Of a stretch of 64,000 bases of DNA, positions 4,500-63,972 are shown piece by piece. Source of the stretch: Myxococcota bacterium (GTDB lineage: Bacteria; Myxococcota_A; UBA796; CAJQPC01). The translations under genes were made by a program, and so were the position numbers. The stretch's first letter is position 1; the number at the start of each line of letters is the position of its first letter. The stretch is from the NCBI GenBank assembly GCA_036229005.1, contig JAZAMN010000062.1, forward strand, positions 1 through 64,000, read 5' to 3'. The notes under the pieces were generated by a model. That model saw only the letters and a program-made list of their open reading frames with translations, did not search any database and was not told where the DNA came from.

Positions 4500-5366
4500 A
4501 TGCTGAACCCCGACGAGCTCAGAGCCCTCCGTCGCCTCAGCCTGCAGGCCGGGCGCAAGGTCGACACGCTGCTTGGCGGTCGCTACCGCTCGGCCTTCAA
4601 GGGCCAGGGATTGGTGTTCGAGGAGGTCCGCACCTACCAGCGCGGCGACGACGTGCGCCACATCGACTGGAAGGTCACCGCCCGCGCCCAGAAGCCCCAC
4701 ATCAAGCGCTTCCGCGAGGAGCGCCAGCAGACCCTGGTGCTCGCCGTGGACGTCTCCGGCTCCATGTTCACCGGCTCTGGGGGCGCGGACGGGCGCACCG
4801 ACAAGGCCCTCCAGCTCGCCCGACTGGCCGGCGGTCTGGCCTACGCCGCCACCGACTCCGGGGACCAGGTCGGCCTGCTTCGCTTCTCCGAGCAGCCTCT
4901 GGACTACCTGCCCCCCCGGGCCTCTCGGGCCCACGCCTGGGCCATCATCCGCAGCCTCTTCGACGCCGAGGCCCCCCGCGACCAGGGCACCGACCTGAGC
5001 GCCGCCATCCAGGCCCTCACCCGCCGCCTCAAGCGCCGCTCTCTGGTCGTGCTGGTCTCGGATTTCCTGGATCCGGGCCCCTGGCAACCCGCCCTCACCG
5101 CTCTGGCTGGCCGGCATGGCGTCCACGCCTTGTTGCTTCACGACCCCGTCGAGGTGCTACCGCCCGCGCTCGGTCTGGTGGAGCTCCAGGACGCGGAGAC
5201 CGGCGCCACCCAGCTCGTGGACCTCTCCAAGCTGCGGGCCCGCCGGACGGTGGACGCCCGCCTGTCCGAGCTGCGCCGCTGCGGCGTGCGGGCCGCCGCC
5301 ATCTCCACCGACCAGGACCCCTTCCAGGCCCTGCGGCGCCACTTCGAGTCCCGGGGGCAGCGGTGA
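4500..5366 (+). CDS. DUF58-family vWA-like protein
   Basis: SAFKGQGLVFEEVRTYQRGDDVRHIDWKVTAR, VDVSGSM, LVSDFL. Typical position after moxR. Confidence 0.92.
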   Translation: MLNPDELRALRRLSLQAGRKVDTLLGGRYRSAFKGQGLVFEEVRTYQRGDDVRHIDWKVTARAQKPHIKRFREERQQTLVLAVDVSGSMFTGSGGADGRTDKALQLARLAGGLAYAATDSGDQVGLLRFSEQPLDYLPPRASRAHAWAIIRSLFDAEAPRDQGTDLSAAIQALTRRLKRRSLVVLVSDFLDPGPWQPALTALAGRHGVHALLLHDPVEVLPPALGLVELQDAETGATQLVDLSKLRARRTVDARLSELRRCGVRAAAISTDQDPFQALRRHFESRGQR

Positions 5367-6220
5367 GCCTGCTGCTGCTCCTGGCCTGCGCCGGCCGCAT
5401 CAAGCCCCTGGACGCCCCTGGGGTGGTCGAGCTGGACAGCTCGCTGGTCAGCCGCCAGGTGCCCGCGGGCAAGCCCGCCACCCTGCGAGCCTGCGTGCGC
5501 GTCTCGGAGCCGGGCTGGTCCTGGGAGCCCCATCTGCCCCAGGTGGACGGCCTCAGCGCGTCCGAGCCCAGCGTGCAGGTGGACGGGGACGTGAGCTGCT
5601 TGAGCGTGGACTACCGGGGCCCCGCCGGTGCCTACGCCCTGGATCCCGTCCGCCTGAGCGTGACCTCGCCGATGGGGGAGGTGTCCGAGGTGGTGGGGCC
5701 GCCGCTGTATCTGGACATCGGTGAGCCCCTGGTGTCCGTGGACCTGGGACAGCCCCTCCCTCAACCCAAGCGCTTCCGGATCACCGAGGCCATCCCCTGG
5801 TGGGTGCCCTTGATCGCTGTTCTTGGGGCCCTCGCCGGGGGCTGGTGGGTGCGCCGCCCCAAGCCCACGCCGCCGCCTCCGCCGCCCACGCCGCCCCACG
5901 TCCAGGCCGAGAACGACTGGGCGCAGGTGCAGGCCGACGGCAGCCTCAGCGACCACGCCAAGGCCCTGGCGCTCTCCGGCATCACCCGCCGCTACATCGC
6001 CGCGATGGGCGTGCCCCAGGCCGAGAGCCTCACCACCGCGGAGCTCGACGCCGCCCTCCAGGACAGCGCGCGCTTTCAGCAGTGGCGCGCCACCATCCAG
6101 CAGCTCCTGGGCGCCGCCGACCAGGTCAAGTTCGCCGGCGGACAGGCCGGACCCCAGACCTTCGCCCGCTGGACCGAGCAGCTCAGCGCACTGCTCCGCG
6201 GCACCCGGAGGGGCCTGTGA
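5363..6220 (+). CDS. Bat-cluster membrane/lipoprotein, hypothetical
   Basis: MSLLLLLAC start, central TM (WWVPLIAVLGALAGGWW), Pro-rich linker, then LSGITRRYI...TTAEL...ADQVKFA as in proteins lying between DUF58 and batA. GTGA overlaps at both ends. Confidence 0.8.
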   Translation: MSLLLLLACAGRIKPLDAPGVVELDSSLVSRQVPAGKPATLRACVRVSEPGWSWEPHLPQVDGLSASEPSVQVDGDVSCLSVDYRGPAGAYALDPVRLSVTSPMGEVSEVVGPPLYLDIGEPLVSVDLGQPLPQPKRFRITEAIPWWVPLIAVLGALAGGWWVRRPKPTPPPPPPTPPHVQAENDWAQVQADGSLSDHAKALALSGITRRYIAAMGVPQAESLTTAELDAALQDSARFQQWRATIQQLLGAADQVKFAGGQAGPQTFARWTEQLSALLRGTRRGL

Positions 6221-7194
6221 GCTGGGGCCTCCAACACCCCTGGGTCCTGGCCGCCTGGCCCCTGATCCCCCTGGCCCTGTGGTGGTCGTGGCGGGGGCGG
6301 GCGCGTCTGCGGGTCGCCTCACTGGCCGCGCTGCGCCCTCAACGCAGCCTCCGGAGCCTGTTGCGCTGGCTGCCCGCCGCCCTCCGCGCCCTGGGACTGA
6401 GCCTCCTGCTGCTGGCCCTGGCCCGCCCCCAGACCACCCGCGAGGAGGTCGTCGTCGAGTCCGAGGGCCTGGACATCCTGCTCGCCATCGACACCTCGCA
6501 GACCATGGAGGCGCAGGACCTCGGCAGTGGGCGCACGCGCATGTCGCTGGCCCGGGAGACCGCCATGGACTTCGTGCGCGGCCGGCCCTACGACCGCATC
6601 GGCGTGGTCGTGTTCGGCGAGGAGGCCTTCACCCAGGTGCCTCTGACCCAGGACCACGACGCCCTGCTGCAGATCCTCGCCCACGTCGACATCGGCCTGG
6701 CCGGCAGCAACGCCACCGCCATCGGGCACGCCATCGCCGTCGCCGCCGGGGACCTGGCCGACCTGGACGCCCCCGAGAAGGTCCTGGTCCTGATCACTGA
6801 CGGCAAGAACACCGTCCCCCAGCCCCCGCAGCCCATGGACGCCGCCCAGGCCGCCGCCACCCTGGGCATCCGCGTCTACACCATCGGCGTGGGCGCGCCT
6901 CCCCGCCGGGCCGGGGGGATCGCCGGGATGATGGGCATGCACACCCGCGACGGCATCGACGAGCCCATGCTCCGAGCCATCGCCAAGGGCACCGGGGGCC
7001 GCTTCTACCGCGCCGCCAGCGCCGAGGACCTGCAGGCCATCTTCGAGACCATCGACCAGCTCGAGACCACCACCGCCCAAGTCAGCACCTTCGTCCACCG
7101 CGACGAGAAGCTGCACCTGGCCCTGCTCCCCGGCCTCGCCATGTTGATGGCCGAGCTGCTCTTGAGCCACACGCTCTTGAGGAGGCTGCCATGA
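6217..7194 (+). CDS. batA: BatA-like vWA domain membrane protein
   Basis: N-terminal HPWVL TM, LALARPQ, MIDAS-like DTSQT, DRIGVVVF, TAIG, LITDG, VYTIGVG, IA..TGGRFYRA. GTG at 6217 overlaps the upstream stop. Confidence 0.9.
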   Translation: MSWGLQHPWVLAAWPLIPLALWWSWRGRARLRVASLAALRPQRSLRSLLRWLPAALRALGLSLLLLALARPQTTREEVVVESEGLDILLAIDTSQTMEAQDLGSGRTRMSLARETAMDFVRGRPYDRIGVVVFGEEAFTQVPLTQDHDALLQILAHVDIGLAGSNATAIGHAIAVAAGDLADLDAPEKVLVLITDGKNTVPQPPQPMDAAQAAATLGIRVYTIGVGAPPRRAGGIAGMMGMHTRDGIDEPMLRAIAKGTGGRFYRAASAEDLQAIFETIDQLETTTAQVSTFVHRDEKLHLALLPGLAMLMAELLLSHTLLRRLP

Positions 7195-9155
7195 GCTTTG
7201 CCGCGGCACCCTGGCTGCACCTCTTGTGGCTCCTGCTCCCCCTGAGCGCCTTGCTGCTCTGGTCCCATCGGCGAGGACACCGGGATCTGAACCGCCTGAT
7301 GGGCGCCGGGCTGCTGGAGCGCGAGCTGGGCCGCGGTCTGCCTCTGCGCCGCGCCCTCCAGTCCCTGCTCCTGATGCTCGGGCTGTCCCTCTGCGCCTTC
7401 GCCTTGGCGCGCCCCCAGCTCGGCGAGACCTGGCGCGAGTCCCAGGCCGAGCACGCCGAGATCGTGGTCGCCCTGGACCTGTCCCGCTCCATGGACGCCC
7501 AGGACGTCGCCCCAAGCCGCCTGGCCCGCGCCCAGCAGGACGCCTGGGAGTTCGTGCAGGCCATGCCCGGCGACCGCATCGGGCTCGTCATCTTCGCCGC
7601 CGGGGCCTACCCGCGGGCCCCCCTCACCACCGACCACAGCGTGCTGGAGCACATGCTCCAGACCGCGCGCACCACCCAGATGCGGGCCCAGGGCAGCAGC
7701 CTGGGGGCGGCGCTGGAGCAGTCCGTGGACCTGCTCTCCGAGGAGGGCGCCGGCGCCCAGGCCATCGTGATCCTCTCCGACGGCGAGGACCACCGCAGCC
7801 AGGCCCTCGACCAGGCCATGGACCGCGTCCAGGCCCGCCACATCCCCGTGTTCGTGGTGGGCGTCGGCACCCAGGACGGCGCCCCCATCCCGCTGCCCGA
7901 GGGCGGCTTCAAGCGCGGCCCCGACGGCAAGGTCGTCGTCTCCCGCCTGGGCCAGCCCACCCTCCAGGCCATCGCGCAGGCCACCGGCGGCTCCTACATC
8001 GAGAGCGTCCCCGGCGGGCAGGACAGCCGGGCCCTGGCCAGCGCCGTGGGGACCTCGCTGACCCGACAGCTCGGGCAGGTGGAGCGCGAGCGCATCCCCA
8101 ATGAGGTGTTCCAGGGTCCTCTGGCCGCCGGGATCCTCCTCCTCCTCCTGTCGACGGGGCTGCGGGATCGCCCCGCACCCTGGGCCCACCGCTTGCCCTG
8201 GCCGGCCCTGCTCGTGCTCCTGATTCCATTGGCTGCCGCCGCCGAGGACATGCGGGGTCTGCTCGAGCGCGGACAGTACGGCGCTGCGCTCCAGCAGGCC
8301 GAGCAGGCGCTCCAGGACGACCCCCGCGACGTGGACGCCCTCTGGGCCCGCGCTGAGGCCCTCTACGGCCTGCAGCAGTACGAGGCCGCCGCCCAGACCT
8401 ACGGGCTCATCGCCGACGGGGCCCGCCAGCGCAGCGCCCGCACCGCCGCCCTGCACAACCAGTCCATCGCCGCCTACCAGGCCGGCAAGCTCGAAGACGC
8501 CCTCAGCGCGCAGCAGCGCATCCTGCTGGAGGACCCCCAGGACCCCGGCGCCCAGCAGGCCGTCGAGCAGCTCACCCAGGAGCTCAGCATGCGCCGTGCC
8601 CCCGAGCCCCAGGAGCCCCCCGAGCAGGATCCCCAGGAGCAGGACCACCCGGATCAGGGCGAGCAGCAGCCAGAAGGGGGCGAGCAGGGCGAGCCGCAGC
8701 AGGGCGAAGGCCAGGAGGAGCAGCAGCCCCAGGCCGGCGAGGGCATGGGCCAGGGAGACAGCGGAGATCCCGGTGCGAGCCCGGAGCGCAGCGGCCAGGA
8801 CCCCACCCAGCAGCCCCCCGAAGGCGGCGACCCCGACGAGCCCGACACGGGCCTCAGTGAGCAGGCCGGCGGTCGCTCCGGCGAGGGCACGCCCACCCCC
8901 GATGACGGCCTGCAGGAGGCCCGGCCCGAGGCCGGAGAGGGGGAGGGGACCCAGGACAGCGGCGACCCCAGCCAGAGCGGGGAGGCCCAGAGCGGAGAGG
9001 CACAGCCCGCAGAGGACCAGAGCGGTGAACCCGACGATGCGCCCGTCGGCCCCGGCGGCATGCGCCCCAGCCAGGCGCGGGAGATCCTGGACTCGGTGGA
9101 GGAGGGGAGCCCGCGGGCGGCCTACGGCGGCAAGGGTGGAGGGCGCGACTGGTGA
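7191..9155 (+). CDS. BatB/BatC-like vWA + TPR protein with Q/E/G-rich tail
   Basis: ALDLSRSMDAQDVAPSRL, PLTTD, LSDGEDH, TPR-like helices, long low-complexity acidic region, ends GRDW. Confidence 0.88.
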   Translation: MSFAAAPWLHLLWLLLPLSALLLWSHRRGHRDLNRLMGAGLLERELGRGLPLRRALQSLLLMLGLSLCAFALARPQLGETWRESQAEHAEIVVALDLSRSMDAQDVAPSRLARAQQDAWEFVQAMPGDRIGLVIFAAGAYPRAPLTTDHSVLEHMLQTARTTQMRAQGSSLGAALEQSVDLLSEEGAGAQAIVILSDGEDHRSQALDQAMDRVQARHIPVFVVGVGTQDGAPIPLPEGGFKRGPDGKVVVSRLGQPTLQAIAQATGGSYIESVPGGQDSRALASAVGTSLTRQLGQVERERIPNEVFQGPLAAGILLLLLSTGLRDRPAPWAHRLPWPALLVLLIPLAAAAEDMRGLLERGQYGAALQQAEQALQDDPRDVDALWARAEALYGLQQYEAAAQTYGLIADGARQRSARTAALHNQSIAAYQAGKLEDALSAQQRILLEDPQDPGAQQAVEQLTQELSMRRAPEPQEPPEQDPQEQDHPDQGEQQPEGGEQGEPQQGEGQEEQQPQAGEGMGQGDSGDPGASPERSGQDPTQQPPEGGDPDEPDTGLSEQAGGRSGEGTPTPDDGLQEARPEAGEGEGTQDSGDPSQSGEAQSGEAQPAEDQSGEPDDAPVGPGGMRPSQAREILDSVEEGSPRAAYGGKGGGRDW

Positions 9156-10729
9156 TCCTGCTCCTGTCCCAGCTCGCCATCGCCGGCGAGGTCAGCCTGC
9201 TGGTCGACACCCCCAAGCTCTCGGTGGGGGAGGCCGTGCGCCTGCAGGTCTCCGTGGAGAGCCCCCAGCAGCCCCCCAGTCCGGCGATCCCCCCGGTGGA
9301 GGGGCTGGAGATCCAGCTCCTGGGCCCGCCCACCTTCTCCCAGAGCTTCTCGTGGGTGAACGGCCAGCAGAGCCAACAGGTCCACTGGGTGTTCACCTAC
9401 CAGCTCAAGGGGACGCGGGAGGGGAGCTACACCCTGGGCCCCGTCACCGTCGGGTCCACCGCCTCGGAACCCTTGGCCATCCAGGTCGGGCCCCAGCAGA
9501 GCGCCGCCAGCGAGGACCTGTCGGTGAGCTTCGGCACCGAGCGCGCCTGGGTGGGCCAGACCCTGCTCTACAGCGGCGAGCTCCGCACCGAGCTGCGCGC
9601 CAACGACCGCCGCTGGAAGCTGCCCGCGTTCACCGGTCTGGCCGACGACCCCCTGGCCCAGGGCGTCAGCGAGGAGTTTGTCAGCAGCGTCCAGGGCGCC
9701 CGCGTGGCGACCTACCGGGTGCACATCCCGCTGATCGCCAGCGAGCCGGGCGAGCACACCCTGTCCAGCGCCGTGCTCACCCTCCAGATCCCCGTCTCCG
9801 GCCGCGGCCTCTTCGTGCGCACCGAGCCGCGCATCTTCACGGGCAAGAGCCCCACGCTCCAGATCCAGCCGCTGCCCGAGGGCCAGGACCCCGCCACCTG
9901 GAGCGGGCTGGTGGGCAGCTTCACCCTGGAGGCCGCCCTGGACCGGGATCAGGTCGCCGCCGGTGAGAGCGCCCAGCTCCAGCTCCGCCTGAGCGGGGAC
10001 GGCAGCTTCCGCGACTGGATCCCCCCCGAGCTGACCCTGGAGGGCGCCCAGGTCTTTGGCGAGGTCCCCGCCACCAGCGGGCAGATCGAGGACGGCGCCT
10101 ACCAGGGCCAGGGGCGCATCACCTACGCCATCCTGCCCAGCGAGCCAGGCGTGCTGGAGATCCCGCCCATCGAGATCCAGGTCTTCGACCCCGAGCTCGG
10201 CGCGTACCGCACCCTGAGCACCCGCCCCGCGCAGATCGAGGTGCTCGCCGGCGCCGAGCTGGAGCCCGAGGTCGTCGACTTCGGCCCCGCGCAGCCCCAG
10301 AGCCCCGAGGGCGAGCCCCTGCCCAGCCTGGAGCGCCGCCCCCAGCCCACCCGCTCCCAGGCCTTCTCCCTCACGCACCCGCTGGCCCTGCTGCTGATGG
10401 TGCTCCCGGTGCTCGGACTGCTGGTGCAGCTTGGTCGGGAGCTCTCCGGGCGCATGAAGCCCGAGCCCGACCCCCACGCCGAGCTGCGCGCGCGCATCGC
10501 TGGGCTGCAGACGGGTGACCTCGCCGGGGCCATGGAGCTGCTGCGGGCTTGTGGGGCCCTGGCGACCGGGCGGTCTGCCGGGGTGCTCCAGGGCCAGGAT
10601 CTGGCCTCCTTCCCCGACCCTGGGCTCTTCGGCGAGCTCCAGGCCGCTCGCTATGGCGCCGCCGACCCCGGGGAGCTGGTGGAACGGACCCGCCGCCTCT
10701 GCGTGGCCCTGCTGGAGGCCGCACCATGA
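9152..10729 (+). CDS. batD: BatD-family protein
   Basis: Repeated beta-rich domains (VGEAVRLQV, SQSFSWVNG, GSYTLGP, VGSFTLEA, GVLEIPPIEIQVFDP) and a late TM segment. Operon position fits. Confidence 0.85.
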   Translation: MILLLSQLAIAGEVSLLVDTPKLSVGEAVRLQVSVESPQQPPSPAIPPVEGLEIQLLGPPTFSQSFSWVNGQQSQQVHWVFTYQLKGTREGSYTLGPVTVGSTASEPLAIQVGPQQSAASEDLSVSFGTERAWVGQTLLYSGELRTELRANDRRWKLPAFTGLADDPLAQGVSEEFVSSVQGARVATYRVHIPLIASEPGEHTLSSAVLTLQIPVSGRGLFVRTEPRIFTGKSPTLQIQPLPEGQDPATWSGLVGSFTLEAALDRDQVAAGESAQLQLRLSGDGSFRDWIPPELTLEGAQVFGEVPATSGQIEDGAYQGQGRITYAILPSEPGVLEIPPIEIQVFDPELGAYRTLSTRPAQIEVLAGAELEPEVVDFGPAQPQSPEGEPLPSLERRPQPTRSQAFSLTHPLALLLMVLPVLGLLVQLGRELSGRMKPEPDPHAELRARIAGLQTGDLAGAMELLRACGALATGRSAGVLQGQDLASFPDPGLFGELQAARYGAADPGELVERTRRLCVALLEAAP

Positions 10730-11352
10730 GCGCTCTCTTGGCCCTGATGCTGCTGCTGAGCCCCGCCGCGCGCGCGCAGGAGCCCCCCGTGAACGCCGAC
10801 GCCCACTGGAACCAGGGCGTCCAGGCGCTGGAGTCCGGCCGCGAGGATCTGGCGGTCCTGGCCTTCCGCCGCGGCCTGATGCTGCGCCCCCACGATGGCG
10901 CCCTCAAGGCCCAGCTCGCCCAGCGCCAGGCCCACCCGGACAGCCCCCCGCTGCTCGCCCCCGACCGCGCCGGCTGGACCGGCGTCCTGCTCCTCTCCTT
11001 GGCCGGATTCTCCCTGCTGATCTGGCGGATTCAGGGTCGCCGGGAGCTGCTGGTGGCGGCGCTCTCGCTGGCCCCTCTGGGCGCGGCCCTCGGCCTCCAG
11101 GCGCAGCTCCAGGTCTCCGGGTGGGGGGAGCGGGCGCTGGTGTTGGCCCCCGGTGCCGTCCTCACCGCCCAGCCCGCTGGTGGCCTGACCCTCTTTGAGC
11201 TCCCTCCCCACAGCGAGGTCACGCTGGGCCCGACCGTGGACGGAGCCGTTCAGGTGCAGACCCTGGACGGGCGGCGGGGATGGACCTCGGAGGACGCTCT
11301 GGGTGTCCTGGACCCCCGGGTGTTCACTGCTCCCACACAACCAGCGCGTTAG
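10726..11352 (+). CDS. BatE-like TPR/TM/SH3 protein
   Basis: Signal peptide, TPR-like WNQGV...AVLAFRRGLMLRP, two TMs, C-terminal SH3-like DGRRGW. ATG 10726 overlaps the batD stop. Confidence 0.75.
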   Translation: MSALLALMLLLSPAARAQEPPVNADAHWNQGVQALESGREDLAVLAFRRGLMLRPHDGALKAQLAQRQAHPDSPPLLAPDRAGWTGVLLLSLAGFSLLIWRIQGRRELLVAALSLAPLGAALGLQAQLQVSGWGERALVLAPGAVLTAQPAGGLTLFELPPHSEVTLGPTVDGAVQVQTLDGRRGWTSEDALGVLDPRVFTAPTQPAR

Positions 11353-11377: not shown

Positions 11378-11902
11378 ATGAACGGCATGATTGCCCTGTT
11401 GGCCCTGAGCATGATGGGCGGTTGCTGGGAGAAGCGCGTCAAGCACCTCTCGGACACCGAGTTCGACCACTACTACGCCCTGCGTCCCTTCATGGACGAG
11501 GACATGAAGAAGACCTACCTCAAGCTCAAGACCCAGGAGGAGCGCGACGCGTACCTCAAGGAGCAGGGCCTGTGGGACCGCTTCTACCAGTACGAGGCCG
11601 ACGAGCGCGAGGCCATCGTCATGGGCGACGTCCAGGAGGGCTGGACCAAGGACAAGGTGCTGATGTCCTGGGGCTCCCCCTACGACAAGCGCAAGGGCGC
11701 CGACATGAGCGTCACCCGCTCGGAGATCCTGGTCTACCGCTTTGAGGGCCACGACTCCGACGACGACGGCAAGGTCGACACCCACATCGTCTGGGAGCCC
11801 AACTCCAAGACCGAGTACAAGGCCGAGGTCCTCTTCCGCAAGGAGGTCCACCTGGCCAACGACGTGGTCACCCTGGTGGAGCTCAAGGACGGCTGGTCCT
11901 GA
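11378..11902 (+). CDS. Hypothetical lipoprotein (BamE/SmpA-like or GWxTD-like motif)
   Basis: AGGAGG RBS, lipobox MMGGC, motif EGWTKDKVLMSWGSP, strong coding codon bias. Confidence 0.8.
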   Translation: MNGMIALLALSMMGGCWEKRVKHLSDTEFDHYYALRPFMDEDMKKTYLKLKTQEERDAYLKEQGLWDRFYQYEADEREAIVMGDVQEGWTKDKVLMSWGSPYDKRKGADMSVTRSEILVYRFEGHDSDDDGKVDTHIVWEPNSKTEYKAEVLFRKEVHLANDVVTLVELKDGWS

Positions 11903-15478: not shown

Positions 15479-15835
15479 TTGATCCTCTTCTTCCTCCTCA
15501 ATCTCGCCTGCGGCCCTGACTACAACGGCGTGTACGCCGCCTGTGATGTCCCCGATGACTGTTCGGGGATCGTCCCCGAGGAGGTCGACGCCGTCTGCCT
15601 CGACAAGTCCGGGCAGGGCTTCTGCACCTGGGACTGCGAGACCGACACCGACTGCGAGGGCGATCAGGACGAGGACGTGGACTTTGTCTGCGCGAGCTTC
15701 GAGAGCACGGAGGGGATGAGCTGCTTCCCTTCGTGCGAGGAGGGGGACACCGCTCAGGGCTCCTGCCCGGACGGCTACACCTGCCGCAGCACGGGTGGCG
15801 GCGAGGACAACCGCAGGGTCTGCTTCCCGGAGTAG
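15479..15835 (+). CDS. Small cysteine-rich lipoprotein
   Basis: TTG start after GGAG, ILFFLLNLAC lipobox, then many Cys in an acidic background. Confidence 0.75.
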   Translation: MILFFLLNLACGPDYNGVYAACDVPDDCSGIVPEEVDAVCLDKSGQGFCTWDCETDTDCEGDQDEDVDFVCASFESTEGMSCFPSCEEGDTAQGSCPDGYTCRSTGGGEDNRRVCFPE

Positions 15836-17898: not shown

Positions 17899-18510
17899 AT
17901 GCTGACGCTCACCCTCCTCACCCTGGGTTCGGCCTGGGCCGCAGACGCCAAGCTCCGCGACGGCGAGATCGGCCTGCGCCTTGAGGCCCCCTTCACCGCC
18001 TCACCGAATGTCCAGGATCAAAGCCTGGGCCTGGGGCAGTCCCAGCTCCACTTCGGCTTCGAGGGGGAGTTCGCCGGAGCGGTCAACCAGCGCCTCTACC
18101 TGCTGGGTCGGGTGGGCAGCCGCCGGCAGTACCTGGCCTTCGAGGACGCGGACTACGAGCCCGATCAGGCCTTCGTGGAGTCGCGCAGCATGCGGGTGCT
18201 GGTGGGCGCGCAGTACAGCCTGCTGGACGCCCCCACCTTTGTGGTCCTGAGCGCCTCCGTGGGCATCTCCTCGTCCTACTGGGTCGCCCGGGTGGGCGCG
18301 GGCAGCGGCGATCGCAAGGGCTGGGGGCCGGCGGGCACCCTGGGCCTGGGGGTGGACCACTTCGTCAACCCGCGCTTCGCCATCACCGGCGAGCTCCGCG
18401 GGTGGGGGGAGCGCCAGCAGGCCGAGCAGATGAGCAGCGGCCCCTACGCCTTCACCTCGCCGTCCTACCGAGCGGGCGCCAGCCTGCTGGTGGGCATCAA
18501 GTTCCGCTGA
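17899..18510 (+). CDS. Putative small outer-membrane beta-barrel protein
   Basis: MLTLTLLTLGSAWA signal, alternating beta-strand pattern (LGLGVDHF, FAITGELRG), ends VGIKFR. Confidence 0.7.
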   Translation: MLTLTLLTLGSAWAADAKLRDGEIGLRLEAPFTASPNVQDQSLGLGQSQLHFGFEGEFAGAVNQRLYLLGRVGSRRQYLAFEDADYEPDQAFVESRSMRVLVGAQYSLLDAPTFVVLSASVGISSSYWVARVGAGSGDRKGWGPAGTLGLGVDHFVNPRFAITGELRGWGERQQAEQMSSGPYAFTSPSYRAGASLLVGIKFR

Positions 18511-18523: not shown

Positions 18524-19198
18524 TCAGCGCTCCCCCGGGCAGATCTGCAGATCCCCCTCGGTGAAGCGGAAGCGCAGCCCCTGCTCGTCGCCCGCGCGGT
18601 GCAGGTAGCGCAGCTCGATGGGGTAGACGCCCGGCCGCAGCTCGATGCTGTGGAGCTGCGGGTCGTAGGGGCTGTCGTGGAGCTCGATCACCCGGGTCTG
18701 GCCGATGTCCAGCCACACATCGCTGCTCGCCCCCAGCACGAAGGGGTAGGTCGTCCGGTCGGTCACCCGCAGCCAGGCCCAGAAGCGCACCGCGAAGTAG
18801 CGGGGGTCTTCAGGCCACCCCTCGTCCACCGGCGCCCAGCCGGGCCCGTACTCCAGGCTGTGCTCGAAGGAGGAGAAGGAGACCTCGTCCCACCAGCCCT
18901 GATCCTCCACCGCCTGGGGCTGTGCGGTGTCCCCAGAATCCACGACAACCCCGGTGTCAACGAGGACAGGCTGAGGCAGCTCCGCCAGCACCCCGGGGTG
19001 GTCCACCGCCAGGTTCGAGTAGCTGGCCATCCAGCCCTGCGTGCAGCGCTCCCAGTCCGGGGGCTCGCCGAAGGGGTGGGGCTCCGCCTCCGGCGGGTCT
19101 TCGGGCGGGGTTGGGGGCGCCTTCTGGACGGAGTAGTCCGAGCAGGCCGCGAGCAGCAGCAGCCCCAAGAGGTGGGCCCCAGAGCGCGCAGGGCTCAC
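18524..19198 (-). CDS. PA14-like domain lipoprotein
   Basis: LLLLAAC lipobox. FAVRFWAWLRV...YPFVLGASSDVWLDIG...LRPGVYPIELRY fits the PA14 pattern. GTGA overlap with the upstream gene. Confidence 0.75.
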   Translation of the reverse strand: MSPARSGAHLLGLLLLAACSDYSVQKAPPTPPEDPPEAEPHPFGEPPDWERCTQGWMASYSNLAVDHPGVLAELPQPVLVDTGVVVDSGDTAQPQAVEDQGWWDEVSFSSFEHSLEYGPGWAPVDEGWPEDPRYFAVRFWAWLRVTDRTTYPFVLGASSDVWLDIGQTRVIELHDSPYDPQLHSIELRPGVYPIELRYLHRAGDEQGLRFRFTEGDLQICPGER

Positions 19199-19536
19199 TC
19201 GGCCCTCCTCAGGTCGCAGTCCACCCACTCCTGCAGGCGCTCCAGCTCCAGGGCCGTCGGGCCGCCCCCGGGGGGCATCTCGGGCAGCTCCGGGTCCAGG
19301 GTGCGCGCCTGGATGCGCTCGGTCCACAGCACCGCGTCCGCGTAGGTGTCCAGGTCCACCCCCACGGGGGCCCCGAAGCGCCGGCTGGGCTCCAGCAGGC
19401 TGCCGTGGCAGCTCGTGCAGTAGCGCTCCAGGAAGGGCTCTCCGAAGTTGTGATAGCTCAGGGCCGGATCCCGCTGGGCGCAGGGATCCGCGGTGTCTTC
19501 GGGCTGCGCACAGCCCAGCAGCAGGGCCAGGATCAT
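19195..19536 (-). CDS. Small c-type cytochrome lipoprotein
   Basis: MILALLLGC, heme motif YCTSCH, GAP.GV.LD, distal EMPP. ATGA overlap with the upstream gene. Confidence 0.85.
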   Translation of the reverse strand: MILALLLGCAQPEDTADPCAQRDPALSYHNFGEPFLERYCTSCHGSLLEPSRRFGAPVGVDLDTYADAVLWTERIQARTLDPELPEMPPGGGPTALELERLQEWVDCDLRRAE

Positions 19537-20810
19537 CGCAGCAGGCCGTCCAGCGCGGGGATGCCGGGGCGGTGGACCTCGGGATCCAGGCCGCCGAGTT
19601 TGAGCAGGGCGGCGCCCACGTGCTCGGTGCCCAGGGTCTCCCCGCTGTCGGAGGGCTGCCCGGTGCTCAGGTCCACCGGCAGGGCGATGAAGCGGTCGTC
19701 GGTCGCCCCGCAGACGTGGTTGCCGCGGATCCCGCTGCCCAGGGCCAGCATCGAGGTGTAGGGCCAGTGGTCCCGACCCATCGCGCCGTTGAACATGGGC
19801 GTGCGGCCCAGCTCGCTGGTGGCGACCACGGTGACCTCGTCGATCAGCCACTCGGCGTCCCGACCGGGGGTGGTCGCCAGGTGGGTCATGAGCTGGTCCA
19901 GCGCGTCAAAGAGCGTGTCCATCTGGGGGCCCACGTTCTGGTTGCCGCCGTGGGTGTCCCAGCCGCCGGGGATGCCCACCATGCCGCAGCGGGACAGGCC
20001 CAGGCGCATCAGCTCGGTGGCCATCAGGCACTGGTCCAGGAAGTCGCCGCCGCCGCTGTCCAGGCCGGCCTCGAAGCGGCGGCCCTCCAGCTCCTCGGCG
20101 CGGTCCAGGCTGGCCAGCAGGTCCTCGGCCCGGCGCTGGCCCAGGCCCTCGCGGGAGTCGGCGAAGGCCAGGGCGCGCTCGTAGACCAGCGCGTCGGCCA
20201 TTGCGTCCGAGGGGGTGGGGACCACCGGGGCAGGGGAGTCGGACTCACCGACAATGCTGCCGTCCATCAGGCGCAGCAGGGTGCCGCCGCCGCCGCGCAC
20301 CAGCGATGCGCCCTGGTTGCCGCCGAAGGCCGGCCCGGAGAACACCACGTGGGGCATGGGGTACTCCTGGGCCGCGTAGGCAGCCAGCAGGGTGGGCCAG
20401 TCCGCCAGGGAGCTGGCCGAGCTGCCGGTCATCATCCACTGGCGCCCGCTGGAGTGGCCGGCGCTGTGCACGTTGACCCCGCGGATCAAGGCGGTGCGGT
20501 TGATCCAGCGGGAGAAGAACAGGTCCATGGCCGGCCGGTCGGCGCCGGAGCTCCAGCTCAGGTTGCCCAGCTCCCCCCGCACGGTGTCGGGGTCCATGTC
20601 GGTGCCCTCGACGGGCGAGAAGCCATCGGCCGCGAACTTGGGATCCAGCGGGGTGGCGTCCCAGCCTCCTCCCGCAAAGAGGAAGAGGAACTTGCGCTCT
20701 CCGCGGTTGTTGGCGGCGCGCGCGGGGCGGGCGCGCACGGTCTCGCCCAGGGTGGCGGCGGCCCAGAGAGCCGCTGCGCCTTGCATCCATCGACGTCGGG
20801 TGGGGGTCAT
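19533..20810 (-). CDS. DUF1501-family protein with Tat signal
   Basis: TRRRWMQG Tat-like signal, FLFLFAGGGWD, GGWDTH, VVATSELGRTP, GRDHW. Confidence 0.85.
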   Translation of the reverse strand: MTPTRRRWMQGAAALWAAATLGETVRARPARAANNRGERKFLFLFAGGGWDATPLDPKFAADGFSPVEGTDMDPDTVRGELGNLSWSSGADRPAMDLFFSRWINRTALIRGVNVHSAGHSSGRQWMMTGSSASSLADWPTLLAAYAAQEYPMPHVVFSGPAFGGNQGASLVRGGGGTLLRLMDGSIVGESDSPAPVVPTPSDAMADALVYERALAFADSREGLGQRRAEDLLASLDRAEELEGRRFEAGLDSGGGDFLDQCLMATELMRLGLSRCGMVGIPGGWDTHGGNQNVGPQMDTLFDALDQLMTHLATTPGRDAEWLIDEVTVVATSELGRTPMFNGAMGRDHWPYTSMLALGSGIRGNHVCGATDDRFIALPVDLSTGQPSDSGETLGTEHVGAALLKLGGLDPEVHRPGIPALDGLLR

Positions 20811-20820
20811 GGGCGGCTCC

Positions 20821-45267: not shown

Positions 45268-46568
<1,301 letters not shown>

Positions 46569-46572
<4 letters not shown>

Positions 46573-47919: not shown

Positions 47920-48783
47920 ATGAATCTGAGCTCCCTTCTTCTCCTGCTGGCCTGTCAGAACGACAGCGTCGGCGACGACAGCGCCTCCTCCACGGTCGAT
48001 CTGGACGGCGACGGCTACATCGAGGACGACTGCGGTCCCAACGACGCAGGCACCTTTCCGGGGGCCCCTGAGCTCTGCGACGGGGTGGACAACGACTGCG
48101 ACGGGGCGCTCGCCTGGGGTGAAGGCGACGAGAACAGCGACGGCGCCTTGGACTGCCTGTCCTGCGAGGCCGCCGGCTACTGGAGCGCGCTTGCTGCCAG
48201 CGACGACCCCGTCGGGACCGCGCCCAGCCTGCTGGAGGGCGACGCCTGCGCCAGCGGTGAGTACAGCACCGTGACCACCTGGATGTTCGAGCGCCTGGAC
48301 GCCGTGGACGACCAGGTCGAGTGCGTCTACACCGGGCGGGTCGTGGACGTATCGGACGGCAAGCCCGACGGCAGCGACATGAACACCGAGCACGCCTGGC
48401 CCCAGAGTCAGGGAGCGAGCGAGTACCCGGCCCGCTGCGACCTGAACCACCTCTTCCCATCGGATGCCTACGCCAACGGCCGGCGGGGGAACCTGCCCTT
48501 CGGCGAGGTCAGCTCGGTGGACTGGGAGCAGGGCGGCTCCAAGCTGGGGACCGACAGCTCCGGCACCGACGTGTTCGAGCCGCGGGACGTCTCCAAGGGC
48601 GACATCGCGCGGGCCATGCTCTACGTGAACGCCCGCTACGACGCGGATCTGTGGGGCCAGCAGGCGCTGCTCGAGTCCTGGTCCCAGGCCGACCCGCCCT
48701 CGGCAGACGAGATCGCGCGCAGCTTGGCAATCGGCGACTACCAGGCCCAGGCCAACCCCTGGGTGGTCTGCCCCATCTGGTAG
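47920..48783 (+). CDS. Endonuclease I-family lipoprotein with MopE-like metal-binding motif
   Basis: LLLLLAC; DLDGDGY...PGAPELCDGVDNDCDG; CVYTG, NTEHAWPQS, DLNHLFPSD..NG.RGNLPFG, KGDIARAMLY, QANPW. Confidence 0.9.
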   Translation: MNLSSLLLLLACQNDSVGDDSASSTVDLDGDGYIEDDCGPNDAGTFPGAPELCDGVDNDCDGALAWGEGDENSDGALDCLSCEAAGYWSALAASDDPVGTAPSLLEGDACASGEYSTVTTWMFERLDAVDDQVECVYTGRVVDVSDGKPDGSDMNTEHAWPQSQGASEYPARCDLNHLFPSDAYANGRRGNLPFGEVSSVDWEQGGSKLGTDSSGTDVFEPRDVSKGDIARAMLYVNARYDADLWGQQALLESWSQADPPSADEIARSLAIGDYQAQANPWVVCPIW

Positions 48784-55084: not shown

Positions 55085-56206
55085 GTGCTGGTCTTCACAC
55101 TGCTGGGTTGCTTTGGCATGGGCCCCGGGCTGGTCGGGATGCCCGAACCCTATGAGCAGCTCGCCTGGCTAAGCCGGAACGTGCCGCTGGTGAGCGTAGA
55201 GGGGGCCGAGGTGATGCGCCTGGAGGAGTTCCTGGTGCCCCAGCTCTGGTACGCCGACTCGGTGGACCCGAGCACGGTGCAGGAGTGCTTTGAGGGGGAG
55301 CGCGTCCACGAGTACATCCCGTCGACCTATGCGCACGTGGAGATCGCCTGGGACGCCATCCGCGTCGCCGATGAGTACACCGTCTCCATGAGCGGCAAGC
55401 CGGACGACTACGAGTGGAACGGCGCGCGCATCGAGAGTCTCTATGTGCGCCTGCTGGAGCTCAAGAGCCAGACCCGCCTGCTCTCTACGGCCTGCTTCCC
55501 GGACGTCGGCGACAAGCTGCTGGTCAGCGTGGACCCCGCCGCCCCCGCGCCCTTGGTTTGGGCGGTGCTCGAGAGCGCTCGGCAGGCGGGCTTCCGGGAC
55601 TTCTACCTGGCGGTGGATGACCCGGTCGCCAAGGCCGACGCCGAGCGTCACCCGGCCTACCCCCGCTTTGAGCCTGGCGCCGGCAAGGCCCGAGAGCGCC
55701 CGCCCGCCCTCAGCGCCGAGGAGCTCGCCGAGGCTCGGGATCAGCTCGCGCGGGGGCTGCGCGTGAACAGCGAACAGGGGTCGTGCAGAGACCGGGCGCG
55801 GCTGCAGATCGATCCGAGCGGCTTCCGCCTGAGCCAGGAGCCGGTGCACACCACCGCACGCTGGGAGGAGCAGGCTCCCAGCCTGGAGGGCCTCAAGGAT
55901 GGTGTCCCGGGCGAGGTCTCGGCGGTGTTCCTCTCGCCACAGGAGGAGGCCACCGCCACGCAGCTCCTGCAGGCTGCGGCCAACCTCCACAGCGCGGGGG
56001 AGACCCTGGCCCTCTCGCCCTTGGGGGAGGCCAACGTGGGCTTCCTGTGGGGGGGAACCCAGCCGCGGATCCCGGTGTGGACGGGCAGCAACAGCTACGA
56101 GTCGCTGGAGGCAGAGGCCTGGCAGCCGGTGATTCACCTGACCATGCCCCTGCGCGCCAGTAGCGTGCCTTGCGTCGATGAGAGCGGGATACGTTGGAGC
56201 CACTGA
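55085..56206 (+). CDS. Hypothetical lipoprotein with ExbD/TolR-like domain(s)
   Basis: LVFTLLGC after GGGAG; LLVSVDPAAPAPLVWAVLESARQAGF resembles the ExbD periplasmic domain. Confidence 0.65.
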   Translation: MLVFTLLGCFGMGPGLVGMPEPYEQLAWLSRNVPLVSVEGAEVMRLEEFLVPQLWYADSVDPSTVQECFEGERVHEYIPSTYAHVEIAWDAIRVADEYTVSMSGKPDDYEWNGARIESLYVRLLELKSQTRLLSTACFPDVGDKLLVSVDPAAPAPLVWAVLESARQAGFRDFYLAVDDPVAKADAERHPAYPRFEPGAGKARERPPALSAEELAEARDQLARGLRVNSEQGSCRDRARLQIDPSGFRLSQEPVHTTARWEEQAPSLEGLKDGVPGEVSAVFLSPQEEATATQLLQAAANLHSAGETLALSPLGEANVGFLWGGTQPRIPVWTGSNSYESLEAEAWQPVIHLTMPLRASSVPCVDESGIRWSH

Positions 56207-58368: not shown

Positions 58369-58371
58369 CGC

Positions 58372-59568
58372 TCAGTCCTTGGAGCCAGCGGTCCACTTGA
58401 GGCCCCACCCGTAGGTGCGGTCGCAGTCGACGTGGTCCTCGTGGAAGGTCGCGGTCTTGGTGACCTTGACGGTGCCGTCGTCCAGGAAGTCGATCCAGCA
58501 GATCGAGCAGAAGGTGCGCTTGTCGGCGGCCTTGCCCAGCTCCACGATGAGCTCGGGGCAGCCGGGCGCCTTCACGGACACCACGCCGTCGGTGTGGGCC
58601 CAGTTGGCGGCGCCCTCGTAGATGTAGGTGAACACCATGATGCGGCGGAGGTTGTGCCGCTCGGCCAGGTTCACCTTGACGTTCTCGCCCGCGGAGGCGG
58701 AGCCCGTGCGGTCATCGCCCATGTGGTAGATCCAGGGCAGGTCCTCGAAGCGGCCCTGCTGGAGGAGGCCCTGGTTCAGGGGCTGCACACAGGCCCGGAC
58801 GGGCTCGTTGGTGCGGGGGTCGATGATCTTGGTCTCGAAGTAGACGCCCAGGTCCAGGTCGACGCTGTCGTCGCTGGAGAAGAGGCTGGCAAAGAAGCCC
58901 TTCTTCTCCTGGGTGGGGCCCTGGTTCCAGTTCAGGTTGATCAGCAGCTCGTCGCTGCTGCCCTTGACGACCTTGGGCTTGATTGCGAAGGAGTCGCCCT
59001 TCTGGGCCAGGGTGATCTTGGACTGGACCTTGAGCTCGCCGGCGCCGGGAACGCTGTTGCGGAAGCCCTCCAGGTCCATGACCATGGAGTCGTTGACCAA
59101 CTGGGCGCCCATGAAGGAGGCGGTGAACTTGGCCAGGATGGCCACGGAGCCGGTCTTGGAGGAGTCCAGGTTGATGACGTGGGACTCGCCCTTGTCGGTG
59201 ACGACCTCGACGCGGGCGTCGTAGTCGTTGAACACCTTGTTGGCCTGGCCCTGCGCGTCGGTGAAGTTCAGCGCGCAGATGTAGAGCTCCTCGATGTCGT
59301 CGAGCTTGGTGATGCGCAGCTCCTCGCGGTTGTCACCGCCGGTCGCGCCCACACCCTCGTCGCCGGAGAGCTGCATGAAGGGGAAGGCGTTCAGGTCGCC
59401 CAGGCTGCCCCCTGCGTAGTTGTCGCTGTAGACACCGCCGGTGCGTCCGTCCTTGGTCTTGTAGAAGGCCATCAGGTCCAGGTCGACCGCGCTGGTCCAG
59501 ACCAGGGAGACCTTGAGCTGCTTGAAGGCGCCGAGCTGGGCGCTGGCGCCCTTTTGCTTGAGTTCCAT
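58372..59568 (-). CDS. Two-domain TerD/TerA-like stress protein
   Basis: N-domain W...DLDL...LSGD...EELRI; C-domain LNWNQ..KKGFF...DLDLG...GDDRTG...GEN...YIYEG..NW...YGWGLKWTAGSKD (TerA-like end). Confidence 0.85.
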   Translation of the reverse strand: MELKQKGASAQLGAFKQLKVSLVWTSAVDLDLMAFYKTKDGRTGGVYSDNYAGGSLGDLNAFPFMQLSGDEGVGATGGDNREELRITKLDDIEELYICALNFTDAQGQANKVFNDYDARVEVVTDKGESHVINLDSSKTGSVAILAKFTASFMGAQLVNDSMVMDLEGFRNSVPGAGELKVQSKITLAQKGDSFAIKPKVVKGSSDELLINLNWNQGPTQEKKGFFASLFSSDDSVDLDLGVYFETKIIDPRTNEPVRACVQPLNQGLLQQGRFEDLPWIYHMGDDRTGSASAGENVKVNLAERHNLRRIMVFTYIYEGAANWAHTDGVVSVKAPGCPELIVELGKAADKRTFCSICWIDFLDDGTVKVTKTATFHEDHVDCDRTYGWGLKWTAGSKD

Positions 59569-61270: not shown

Positions 61271-61277
61271 GTCTTCC

Positions 61278-61808
61278 TCAGCCGTTGATGATGTCGAGGA
61301 GCTGCTGCAGGTTGGTCAGACCCTTGAGCGTGCCCGCGCTGGAGGTGTTGACCAGCTTGGATCCGACGGGGCCGTTCTCGATCATGGCGATGGAGGCGAC
61401 GTTGCCGAAGGTGCCGGCGTCCAGGGTCACGCTGTGGCTGTTGCCGGTGTCGTCCATCACGGACAGGCTGATGTCCGAGTCCTGGAAGCGAGCGGGCTTG
61501 CCGGCCTGCACCTGGCCGTAGTCCCAGGCCAGCAGCCAGATGGCCTTCATGTCGTCGAGCTTGGTGATGCGAAGCTGCTCTTCGTTGTCGCCGCCGGCGT
61601 CACCCTGGCCCTCGTCGCCGGAGAGCTGGATGTAGGGGAAGTCGTTCAGGTCACCCAGATCGCCGAAGTACACCAGCCCGTAGCTGCCGTCCTTCTTCTG
61701 GTAGGCGGCCGCCAGGTCGAAGTCCGCTGCGGTGGTCCACTTCATGGTGACCAGGAGCTGCTTGAAGCTGCCGACGTTTGCGGAAGCGCCCTTCTGCTTG
61801 AGTTCCAT
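61278..61808 (-). CDS. Single-domain TerD-like stress protein
   Basis: MELKQKGASA...WTTAADFDL...LGDLNDFPYIQLSGDEG...DNEEQLRITKLDD. Clear paralog of the N-domain of 58372..59568. Confidence 0.85.
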   Translation of the reverse strand: MELKQKGASANVGSFKQLLVTMKWTTAADFDLAAAYQKKDGSYGLVYFGDLGDLNDFPYIQLSGDEGQGDAGGDNEEQLRITKLDDMKAIWLLAWDYGQVQAGKPARFQDSDISLSVMDDTGNSHSVTLDAGTFGNVASIAMIENGPVGSKLVNTSSAGTLKGLTNLQQLLDIING

Positions 61809-61931: not shown

Positions 61932-63053
61932 TCAGAACTCCTGCTTGCGCCGCTCCGCCGCCAGCCGCTCCGCGTGGGCCAGCCGCCGCTGCCGAGCCCG
62001 GAAGGCCACCACGCCCATGGACAGCAGCCCCAGCCCCATCGCGCCCGAGAGCATCAGCCAGGTGCTGTCGCCGACGGGGGACGGCCGCCGCTCCTGCAGC
62101 CACTGCTCCGGCTCCTCCCGGCCCAGGCGCTCCAGGCGCCGCAGGGTGCGCTCCTCCCAGTCCCAGCGCTCAAGCTGGCGCAGGATGTCTTCAGGGTCGG
62201 CGCCGCGGCGGTCGCTGGTCTGCCGGCTGGGGAAGAAGTGGTTGTCGTTGTTCCAGGCGCGCAGAGGCAGGTCGCTGTCCAGCAGCGGGTCGTCGGCGGC
62301 GACCACGGCCTCCAGGACCATGCCCTTGTCCAGCCAGCCGTTCCAGCCCAGGTCGGTGCAGCCCCGGGTGCAGCCGCCGATGGTGCCGGTGCCGTCCACG
62401 TGCAGGAAGACCCGCCCCTCAGGGCCCTCGATGAGTGGGGAGCCGGCCGGGGGCTCCACGCTGCTCAGGTCTCCCACGGAGCGCAGCAGGGCGGTGCTGA
62501 GGTGACCGCCGGGGCCCTCCTGCTTGCGCCAGCGCATCAGGTAGGGCGTGTACCCCAGCTCCAACAGCAGCGCCGACATCAGGATGGCGGCGTCGTCGCA
62601 GTCGCCTTGCTCGTCGACCAGCATCTCCACGGCGTACTTGGGGTACTCCGTCCAGCCCGTCTCCGCGTCCAGGTGGTAGTCCAGGGACTGCGAGATGCCC
62701 TGGACGTACCCGACCTTGACGGCGTCGGAGGTGATGCCCTGCTCAGTGAAGAAGGCCTCCAGGGCGCGGGCCAGGGGCTCCAGGTCCTGCTGGGAGGTCG
62801 CGATGAGCTCACTGGCCTGCGCGTGGGGGCCATTGCGCCGGGCCACGTAGGCGTCCACGGACACGCCGATCTCCACCCAGGCCAGCTCCTGGCAGGAGAC
62901 CTGGTAGCTGGGGCAGAAGGGCCAGGACAGCACGTGCACGCTGGGGTCGATGCTCTCCACCTGCCCGTGGGGCTGGTCGTCGTGGAACACCGCCGCGCTG
63001 CGGATGGCCGTGGAGGCCTGCGCGCTCAGCAGGCCGGAGAGCAGCAGCCACAT
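61932..63053 (-). CDS. Transglutaminase-like (Cys-His-Asp) exported protein with C-terminal TM
   Basis: MWLLLSGLLSAQA, EYPKYAVEMLVDEQGDCDDAAILMSALL..LGY, GHLS, VDGTG, TM and basic tail. Confidence 0.82.
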   Translation of the reverse strand: MWLLLSGLLSAQASTAIRSAAVFHDDQPHGQVESIDPSVHVLSWPFCPSYQVSCQELAWVEIGVSVDAYVARRNGPHAQASELIATSQQDLEPLARALEAFFTEQGITSDAVKVGYVQGISQSLDYHLDAETGWTEYPKYAVEMLVDEQGDCDDAAILMSALLLELGYTPYLMRWRKQEGPGGHLSTALLRSVGDLSSVEPPAGSPLIEGPEGRVFLHVDGTGTIGGCTRGCTDLGWNGWLDKGMVLEAVVAADDPLLDSDLPLRAWNNDNHFFPSRQTSDRRGADPEDILRQLERWDWEERTLRRLERLGREEPEQWLQERRPSPVGDSTWLMLSGAMGLGLLSMGVVAFRARQRRLAHAERLAAERRKQEF

Positions 63054-63054
63054 C

Positions 63055-63972
63055 TCAGAACTCCTCGCGGGCGCGGTCCCGCTTTCGCTTGGCGAGCACC
63101 TGGGCGCCCCGGCTGCGGTTCCGGAGCACCAGCGCCCCCATCCCGAACAGCACGGAGCCCAGGCCGACGCTGCCCAGCCACCAGGCCGCGTTTCCTTGCT
63201 GGGGGACAGCCGCGGGGGCCACTCGGGGCCTTGGGGCCGGCGTCGTGGGCTCCGGAGGGGGCAAGGGCCGGGCCTCCGATGCGCCGCCCGGATCGAACCC
63301 CGGGGCCTTGGCCTGGGCGAGTGACCAGGAGGCCAGCTCCGATGCCGCCGCCTCGGGAGCCAGGTGGGCGTTGGGGTGCAGGGTGTAGAGCACGCCGCCG
63401 CCGGGCAGCCCGACAAGGACCGTGTCCGGTGGCGGGGTCCCGCCGCTGCGCAGCCCGAAGGCCACACCGGCGGTGGTCGTTGGGCAGGGGTAACGCACCA
63501 GCTCCGCCTCCAGGCCCAGCGCGTCCACCAAGGCCAGGCTCACCAGCGCGGCCGACAGGGTGTCCGCGGACTCCGGGTCCAGGAGGAGCTGCCAAGGCTG
63601 GAGCAGCTCGGGGCCCCGCGCCAGGGCGACCTCGTGTTCGAAGCTGCCGTTCTGCATCAGCCCGACCACCTGGGCGATCTGCAGCGGTGCGGTCTGGGCC
63701 GAGGGCAGCCCGGCTGCCCGGAGCGCGTCCAGCAGCCCCTCGATCTGCTCGGCCTGGAGCTGCTCTGAGGGGGAGGTGGCGGCGGGGGGCGCCTGGGTCC
63801 AGGAGATGGGGACCTGCACGTGCACGGTCCACGGGGTGGTGTCCGGCGGCAGGACGCGCGCGAGCTCCTCGACCTCGTGCTGGGGGACAGCGACCTCGCG
63901 GGCGGTGACGAGCCCCGGGTCCAAGCGCACAGAGAAGGCGGCGGAGGAGGTGGGGATCAGGGCCAGCAGCAT
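63055..63972 (-). CDS. Transglutaminase-like paralog, probably inactive, with C-terminal TM
   Basis: Collinear with its neighbour but ADTLSAA replaces GDCDDAA; Pro/Ala linker, TM, basic tail. Start is ATG 63972 or GTG 63984. Confidence 0.68.
   Translation of the reverse strand: MLLALIPTSSAAFSVRLDPGLVTAREVAVPQHEVEELARVLPPDTTPWTVHVQVPISWTQAPPAATSPSEQLQAEQIEGLLDALRAAGLPSAQTAPLQIAQVVGLMQNGSFEHEVALARGPELLQPWQLLLDPESADTLSAALVSLALVDALGLEAELVRYPCPTTTAGVAFGLRSGGTPPPDTVLVGLPGGGVLYTLHPNAHLAPEAAASELASWSLAQAKAPGFDPGGASEARPLPPPEPTTPAPRPRVAPAAVPQQGNAAWWLGSVGLGSVLFGMGALVLRNRSRGAQVLAKRKRDRAREEF

Follow-up and report, generated by a model that had tools for sequence, protein, structure and literature searches.

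Short, uncharged predicted lipoprotein signals with pinned start sites in one order of Myxococcota, and a candidate SecY correlate

According to textbooks, a bacterial export signal needs a basic n-region and about 20 residues, and the programs that predict such signals are built on these requirements. How little such a signal may consist of is the question raised by the first 64,000 nucleotides of Myxococcota contig JAZAMN010000062.1 (the window), in which a first-pass annotation made from the sequence alone had listed 12 predicted lipoproteins with the lipobox cysteine at residue 8–12 and no Lys or Arg before it. All 12 N-termini were found as described, as were four short N-termini resembling signal peptidase I (SPI) signals (9152, 17899, 39171, and 63053) and the canonical controls with Cys20 (31163), Cys18 (35368), and Cys21 (27389). 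The starts at 5363, 9152, 22440, 36326, and 47920 have no earlier in-frame ATG, GTG, or TTG, and the claimed passengers, CxxCH in 19536, FG-GAP in 29497, and endonuclease I in 47920, were likewise recovered. Two of the 12 lipobox cases (15479 and 24157) are ambiguous, with an upstream ATG that would give an Arg-containing extension, and the gene at 23465 possibly starts one codon earlier, which would place its cysteine at residue 13. The explanation we favor, with a probability of roughly 0.6, is that these are minimal Sec signals that take the ordinary Sec–Lgt–LspA (or LepB) route through a less strict translocon.

The genome to which the window belongs has 6.4 Mb, 70% GC, and a completeness of 94%, and a dicodon gene caller built for the census returned 5,310 genes at 90% coding. 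It contains no assembled 16S gene; its placement in Myxococcota is indicated by the labels of homologs and by SecY similarity. An uncharged lipobox signal is present even with the farthest start in 423 of 5,309 genes versus 18 of 21,658 non-gene open reading frames. The distribution of cysteine position in this genome is bimodal, with one mode at residues 8–14 without Lys or Arg and another at about 16–22 with them. A strict set, defined by a cysteine at residue 13 or earlier, no Asp, Glu, Lys, or Arg before it, and no further upstream start, contains 347 genes (Cys7 in 2, Cys8 in 78, Cys9 in 84, Cys10 in 89, Cys11 in 55, Cys12 in 30, and Cys13 in 9). The other 501 lipobox genes comprise 195 with a short Lys/Arg-free start backed by a Shine-Dalgarno sequence or stop overlap, 153 with a longer Lys/Arg signal, 49 with a longer Lys/Arg-free signal, 10 with a short signal containing Lys or Arg, and 94 with no supported start. 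The short form is therefore found in approximately 540 genes, about one tenth of the genome, and is commoner than the canonical form. An initiator Met followed by a hydrophobic head occurs in 459 genes, 299 of which have a small residue and Cys at residues 7–14, compared with 3.9% of 4,275 controls and a background Cys frequency of 1.06%; the small −1 residue was built into the lipobox filter, but this cysteine enrichment was not. The remaining hydrophobic heads divide into 80 with Ala-X-Ala at residues 9–17, 6 with long hydrophobic stretches, and 74 others, and Ala-X-Ala is present in 53% of 159 non-lipoprotein heads versus 12% of controls. A single expanded paralog family as the source of the trait is ruled out, since the 347 genes fall into 275 sequence clusters with 246 singletons.

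In consensus, the short form opens with Met, continues with five to seven residues that are mostly Leu, and closes with Ala or Gly and then Cys, after which comes an acidic linker rich in Pro, Asp, Glu, and Thr. The length has a floor at Cys8, with Cys7 found in just two genes, and residue 2 is bulky in 77 of the 78 Cys8 genes, a small residue 2 appearing only with longer signals. Strong hydrophobic residues number about six regardless of length (median 6 for Cys8–10). Over the last seven residues, Kyte–Doolittle hydropathy is 2.65 and the Leu fraction 0.52, versus 2.30 and 0.40 in 90 canonical signals, while the uncharged run has a median of 9 residues versus 13.5 in the canonical signals of this genome. 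Initiator Met stays in place when the next residue is bulky, and the floor together with the bulky second residue suggests that a minimal core has been selected of which this Met is a part. Compared with canonical Sec/signal peptidase II signals of the Escherichia coli Lpp type ([LV][ASTVI][GAS]C), the short form shares Leu at −3 (68%), Ala or Gly at −1 (83% and 14%), Cys at +1, and a hydrophobic core; the genome encodes Lgt, LspA, Lnt, and LolA, and homologs of the same proteins carry canonical signals. It differs in having Leu at −2 in 70% of cases, a position given to small residues in the textbook box, in the fusion of h-region and lipobox into one stretch of 7–11 residues, in a cysteine at residue 8–12 rather than at the 16–22 peak of this genome's own Lys/Arg signals, and in the absence of a positively charged n-region, none of the 347 pinned signals having a charged residue (Asp, Glu, Lys, or Arg) before the cysteine. 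The short signals are thus a variant of lipoprotein and SPI signals that fails the n-region and length features, and not canonical members of either class. A positively charged n-region is given as a feature of lipoprotein signals (PMC8048626, PMC9360617), and SignalP 6 labels an n-region of at least two residues (PMC9287161).

The short starts are almost certainly real. In 129 of the 347 genes the frame is closed by a stop within 15 codons of the cysteine, which rules out a longer signal whatever the start codon, and 64 of the 347 starts overlap the preceding stop (−4 or −1). A de novo search for Shine-Dalgarno 4-mers places them ahead of 61% of the 212 short starts without such overlap and of 58% of 529 reference starts, compared with 14% of 4,190 internal ATGs, and the top motif is positioned at −9 to −11 in short-start and reference genes alike. 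Orthologs of BatD were matched in 29 of 31 genomes, and all 20 loci fetched start on the same stop overlap, with Lys and Arg absent from 14 of the 20 N-termini. BamA starts directly after an in-frame stop and has a Lys/Arg-free signal of 15 residues. These SPI-type signals resemble canonical Sec/SPI signals (n-h-c) in a hydrophobic core ending in Ala-X-Ala, with LepB encoded, and differ from them in lacking an n-region (BamA and the 14 BatD loci) and in predicted cleavage after residue 9–17. A close parallel is found in Bacteroides thetaiotaomicron, where lipoprotein signals of about 10 residues, without n-region or positive charge, did not secrete, and four of five ineffective lipoprotein signals were mis-called starts (PMC11554821). 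That precedent and the two ambiguous window cases favor an account in which translation really begins farther upstream, at an unusual codon, or in which the genes are fused to frames upstream of them. In the present genome, however, this escape is closed, stops and Shine-Dalgarno sequences fixing the starts in hundreds of genes, and the stop-capped signals, a Shine-Dalgarno frequency and spacing like those of reference genes, the shared BatD overlap, and the 90% coding density obtained with translation table 11 leave mis-called starts highly improbable.

The cargo of the short signals is extracytoplasmic by homology. Pfam was scanned against 91 of the 347 proteins, those within the 20 densest 20-kb stretches, and 45 gave a match, including three c-type cytochromes, two solute-binding proteins, SCO1, an HlyD adaptor, S41 and M15 peptidases, three sulfatases, glycosidases, phospholipase D, and FG-GAP, lamin-tail, and Ig-like domains. 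Two of the 45 belong to families that we take to be cytoplasmic, an HMGL-like protein that is a false positive of the filter and a Memo-like protein with a real lipobox. The latter (L302:4276–5214, plus strand) has a pinned, clean short lipobox with an acidic linker and may be an exported variant. An additional transmembrane (TM) segment is present in 7 of the 347 proteins.

Taxonomic range was determined from sampled 20-kb stretches totaling 1.7 Mb over 29 genomes with a count that uses no gene caller, the related genomes not being independent of each other. Within the order to which this genome belongs, 25 short and 26 canonical signals were found in 800 kb from 11 genomes, 8 of them positive; the positive genomes represent six of the order's seven families in the BatD search plus family f2, and one has 48% GC. 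The rest of the class yielded no short and 16 canonical signals (515 kb, 12 genomes) and other classes no short and 14 canonical signals (380 kb, 6 genomes). Short SPI-type signals in the same samples numbered seven in the order, one in the rest of the class, and none in other classes. Over this whole genome, the procedure finds 394 short signals versus 134 canonical ones. The flanks of named SecY genes gave two short matches in 1,537 kb, although these stretches are rich in ribosomal operons and constitute a weak control. In the sampled stretches, then, the trait is limited to one order. A high-GC artifact is ruled out by the 48% GC genome that has the trait and by outsiders of 68–70% GC that do not. 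The proposal of the first-pass annotation that this lineage uses a minimal export and lipidation signal is likely to be correct given real, charge-free starts, a lineage-wide occurrence, and extracytoplasmic cargo, with export and lipidation of the proteins themselves predicted from their sequences.

A single protein family indicates which route is used. Of 328 homologs of the DUF1585/DUF1588 gene at 22440, 120 were listed and labeled automatically, with a few labels wrong or derived from truncated gene calls; among these 120, 63 have Lys/Arg signals and 37 have short uncharged ones on the same lipobox, while 10 are longer calls with an inner Met that would give the short form, 3 are longer without Lys or Arg, and 7 lack a lipobox. 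A FastTree phylogeny of 107 of the 120 (13 unlabeled rows dropped), built from an alignment without the signals, has 15 label changes, 10 of which are forced by well-supported branches, compared with 29.6 changes in shuffles. Because short and long signals interchange on one lipobox, the pattern points to a single pathway with a relaxed requirement and not to a new route, and export and lipidation are very probably performed by the ordinary enzymes. The distinct route suggested in the first-pass annotation is not supported, given this alternation, and dedicated Lgt or LspA paralogs fare no better, since copy numbers do not track the trait.

A dedicated branch, in which a divergent Lgt or LspA paralog or a separate export route serves the short signals, would be consistent with the four Lgt and two LspA genes of this genome, two of the Lgt copies falling under the TIGR00544 cut-off and forming a divergent pair. 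The divergent Lgt, however, is also found outside the order (12 of 12 genomes in family f8, 2 of 2 in f9, and 2 of 2 in f10), LspA is present in one to three copies on both sides of the order boundary, and short signals are nonetheless present in four genomes of the order that gave a single LspA match (G019, G028, G029, and G030), such single-match genomes carrying both signal types. SPI-type signals are shortened as well, which no lipoprotein enzyme could explain, and we consider such a branch very unlikely. The Lgt paralogs here (L027–L030) lie on contigs C8, C20, C21, and C52, with C8 carrying the cluster lspA–unknown gene–lspA–lgt; the divergent Lgt type, common to f8–f10, is weak or absent in f11 and f12.

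The genome encodes one SecY, one SecA, Ffh, FtsY, signal recognition particle (SRP) RNA, LepB, and the lipoprotein enzymes named above, and SecB was not found in this 94% complete assembly. Loss of SRP is ruled out by two SRP54-family genes here and at least one in all 31 genomes, by the Ffh domains, and by the SRP RNA. SecA offers no lead as the adapted component: 15 of about 820 columns are diagnostic of the order, and the acidic-minus-basic balance of the preprotein-binding region shows no shift (6.2 versus 6.7; 22 in-order sequences, 20 outside). In SecY, with columns numbered by alignment to the E. coli chain, position 187 is Ala in 19 and Ser in 11 of the 30 in-order genomes and Ile in all 26 genomes outside. 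This residue, which we take to be one of six pore-ring isoleucines, is positioned one helix turn before ring residue Ile191. SecY Phe64Tyr was rejected as class-wide and not tracking the trait, as was Phe192, which is replaced in the order but also variable outside. One record titled Enterobacterales (L044), with a SecY 71% identical to that of this genome and Ala187 and Thr192, is likely a mislabeled member of the order.

Alleles of prlA permit the export of proteins whose signals are defective or absent, and they map to the pore ring, plug, and gate (PMC7530735, PMC3101351, PMC3164448); pore-ring substitutions often yield a super-active SecY (PMC13537251). Position 187 is a possible analog of E. 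coli prlA alleles such as prlA4 in that a smaller residue replaces Ile in channel-lining TM5, and the signals of the order would count as defective in E. coli. Unlike those alleles, the replacement is natural and fixed across the order, is known from sequence alone, leaves Ile86, Ile191, Ile278, and Ile408 intact, and affects a position that is not given as a prlA site in the papers examined.

Under the explanation we favor, a Leu-rich core that includes the retained initiator Met would suffice to engage SRP or SecA and to open SecY, and loss of the Ile187 side chain may lower the opening barrier in the manner of a natural prlA allele. The short signal would then sit in the outer half of the membrane with its cysteine at the periplasmic face, which may be all that Lgt and LspA need, with cleavage by LspA after Lgt action, or by LepB for the Ala-X-Ala signals. 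The signals had been described as too short to span a bilayer, but a seven-residue core need not do so, because Lsp cleaves inside the membrane, where its catalytic residues occupy the upper half, and because the h-regions of lipoproteins are shorter to begin with than those of SPI signals (PMC8048626, PMC9360617). After tolerance arose, n-regions were likely lost repeatedly, mostly in accessory surface proteins. A permissive translocon is probable on the present evidence; residue 187 as its main cause is a tentative assignment. Similarly tentative, and less likely than not, is the most specific version of this account, in which an order-wide, prlA-like translocon (Ile187 to Ala or Ser) would accept a seven-residue, charge-free N-terminus, probably still formylated, as all that export and lipidation require, representing the physical minimum of a Sec signal, with the n-region shed independently many times in about a tenth of the proteome.

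Several observations weigh against the explanation we favor. Column 187 is just one of 16 that separate the order from its neighbors, and a residue other than Ile is present in 17 of 79 named outsiders (Thr in 11, Ser in 4, Val in 1, and Ala in 1). The pore-ring residues named in PMC13537251 (Ile86, Ile191, Ile278, and Ile408) are unchanged in the order, and Ile187 was not found named as a ring residue in the literature. The SecY link is a single clade-level coincidence, so that the adapted Sec recognition envisaged in the first-pass annotation is left with one candidate residue. Beyond SecY, three of the 11 in-order genomes (G006, G052, and G025) had no short signal in the 40–80 kb sampled, the filter admitted one clear false positive among 91 proteins (the HMGL-like one), and similar signals failed in Bacteroides (PMC11554821). 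In addition, Lys/Arg signals are mostly kept by BamD and LolA (30 loci each) and by the SurA-like proteins of the window, and in the case of BamD and LolA this may mean that long signals still work better. The outsider SecYs without Ile187 (loci L045–L123), mostly from Alphaproteobacteria, form a natural contrast group.

The same retention of Lys and Arg in BamD, LolA, and SurA-like proteins would be expected if no machinery had adapted and the short forms were weakly working signals, possible in any bacterium, that had drifted on low-demand accessory proteins. The continuum of lengths within families and the acidic residues kept in the SecA preprotein-binding region (6.2 versus 6.7) fit this idea, which is opposed by the Lys/Arg-free signal of BamA, by the failure of comparable signals in Bacteroides, and by the presence of the trait in about 10% of genes here versus none in 895 kb outside the order; we judge it improbable. 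Cotranslational targeting by SRP (with YidC) through an unchanged SecY is a rather unlikely alternative with more to recommend it. Here the core would bind SRP, thereby blocking deformylation, and the uncharged formyl-Met would sink into the membrane. The genome has Ffh, FtsY, and SRP RNA, whereas no SecB was found in it, the cores are richer in Leu than canonical ones, and residue 2 is almost never small at minimal length, so that Met would be kept under the general rule for its removal. Deformylation is prevented by SRP binding (PMC5454389), and Lpp uses SRP and YidC (PMC8048626). SRP is near-universal, however, and does not by itself account for a trait that ends at the order boundary.

A literature search, with subscription journals largely outside its reach, returned no report of lineage-wide short lipoprotein signals. 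The hundreds of natural signals with a sharp seven-residue floor may indicate what the Sec–Lgt–Lsp machinery minimally needs, and they provide ready test substrates for studying signal proofreading by SecY, in which one particular residue could be exchanged. Annotation may have assigned much of the surface proteome of the order (hydrolases, cytochromes, and binding proteins) to the cytoplasm or to wrong starts, and very short export tags could serve protein production.

Within the window, dnaK-dnaJ leads directly into a bat-type operon (376–11352, plus strand; vWA BatA/BatB-like proteins and BatD, of the MoxR/vWA type). This operon holds a predicted Cys9 lipoprotein (5363–6220, plus strand), whose start is overlapped by the upstream stop (open reading frame end 5366), and the BatD-like protein (9152–10729, plus strand), which has an uncharged SPI-type signal of 11 residues and likewise starts on the upstream stop. 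An intermediate-type lipoprotein candidate, with Cys16 and no Lys or Arg, follows at 11378–11902 (plus strand). A small Cys-rich predicted lipoprotein with Cys11 from TTG (15479–15835, plus strand) has an ATG 14 codons upstream, and a predicted secreted protein with an uncharged SPI-type signal of 14 residues (17899–18510, plus strand) has no Pfam match. An extra candidate absent from the first list (18524–19168, minus strand) would have Cys9 from TTG, with upstream starts available.

Four short-signal lipoproteins form a tightly overlapping operon with DUF1501 and DUF1585/DUF1588 genes (19195–24157, minus strand): predicted lipoproteins with Cys12 at 23465–24157 and at 22440–23465 (or Cys13 from the preceding GTG; strong Shine-Dalgarno), the DUF1585/DUF1588 lipoprotein with Cys8, the minimal form, at 20821–22440, and last a Cys9 protein with the CxxCH heme motif at 19195–19536, whose start overlaps the upstream stop. 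The FG-GAP repeat lipoprotein (28061–29497, minus strand; Cys10), overlapped at its start by the stop of a histidine kinase gene, has an Asp-Ala repeat linker after the lipobox, and Asp-Thr-rich linkers recur after many short lipoboxes. The Cys20 control (31163–32170, plus strand) is a SurA/PrsA-like peptidyl-prolyl isomerase with a canonical Lys/Arg lipoprotein signal. Predicted lipoproteins with Cys8 (35518–35973, minus strand) and Cys9 (35967–36326, minus strand) have starts overlapped by the end of the upstream gene and by the hflX stop, respectively.

A predicted secreted protein at 39171–41393 (plus strand) has an uncharged SPI-type signal of 10 residues, and an alpha-amylase-family lipoprotein candidate (41415–43832, minus strand; Cys10) has upstream starts, with the Shine-Dalgarno sequence favoring the short one. 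Two tandem flotillin-like genes (45322–47813, plus strand) are immediately upstream of the endonuclease I lipoprotein (47920–48783, plus strand; Cys12), and a predicted Cys9 lipoprotein (55085–56206, plus strand) has a Shine-Dalgarno sequence at normal spacing. A transglutaminase-like predicted secreted protein (61932–63053, minus strand) has an uncharged SPI-type signal of 13 residues, and the neighboring predicted secreted protein (63055–63972, minus strand), with a short uncharged SPI-type signal, has an in-frame stop four codons upstream. The genes at 58372–59568 and 61278–61808 (both minus strand) have near-identical N-terminal sequences, a paralogous domain for which NCBIfam gave no match at 1e-10. 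In the class as a whole, BamD (TIGR03302, loci L234–L263) mostly has an Ala-X-Ala-type site and no lipobox cysteine, Gly-Cys being present in 3 of 30 loci (L239, L248, and L257), which suggests, from these N-termini, a soluble, non-lipidated BamD.

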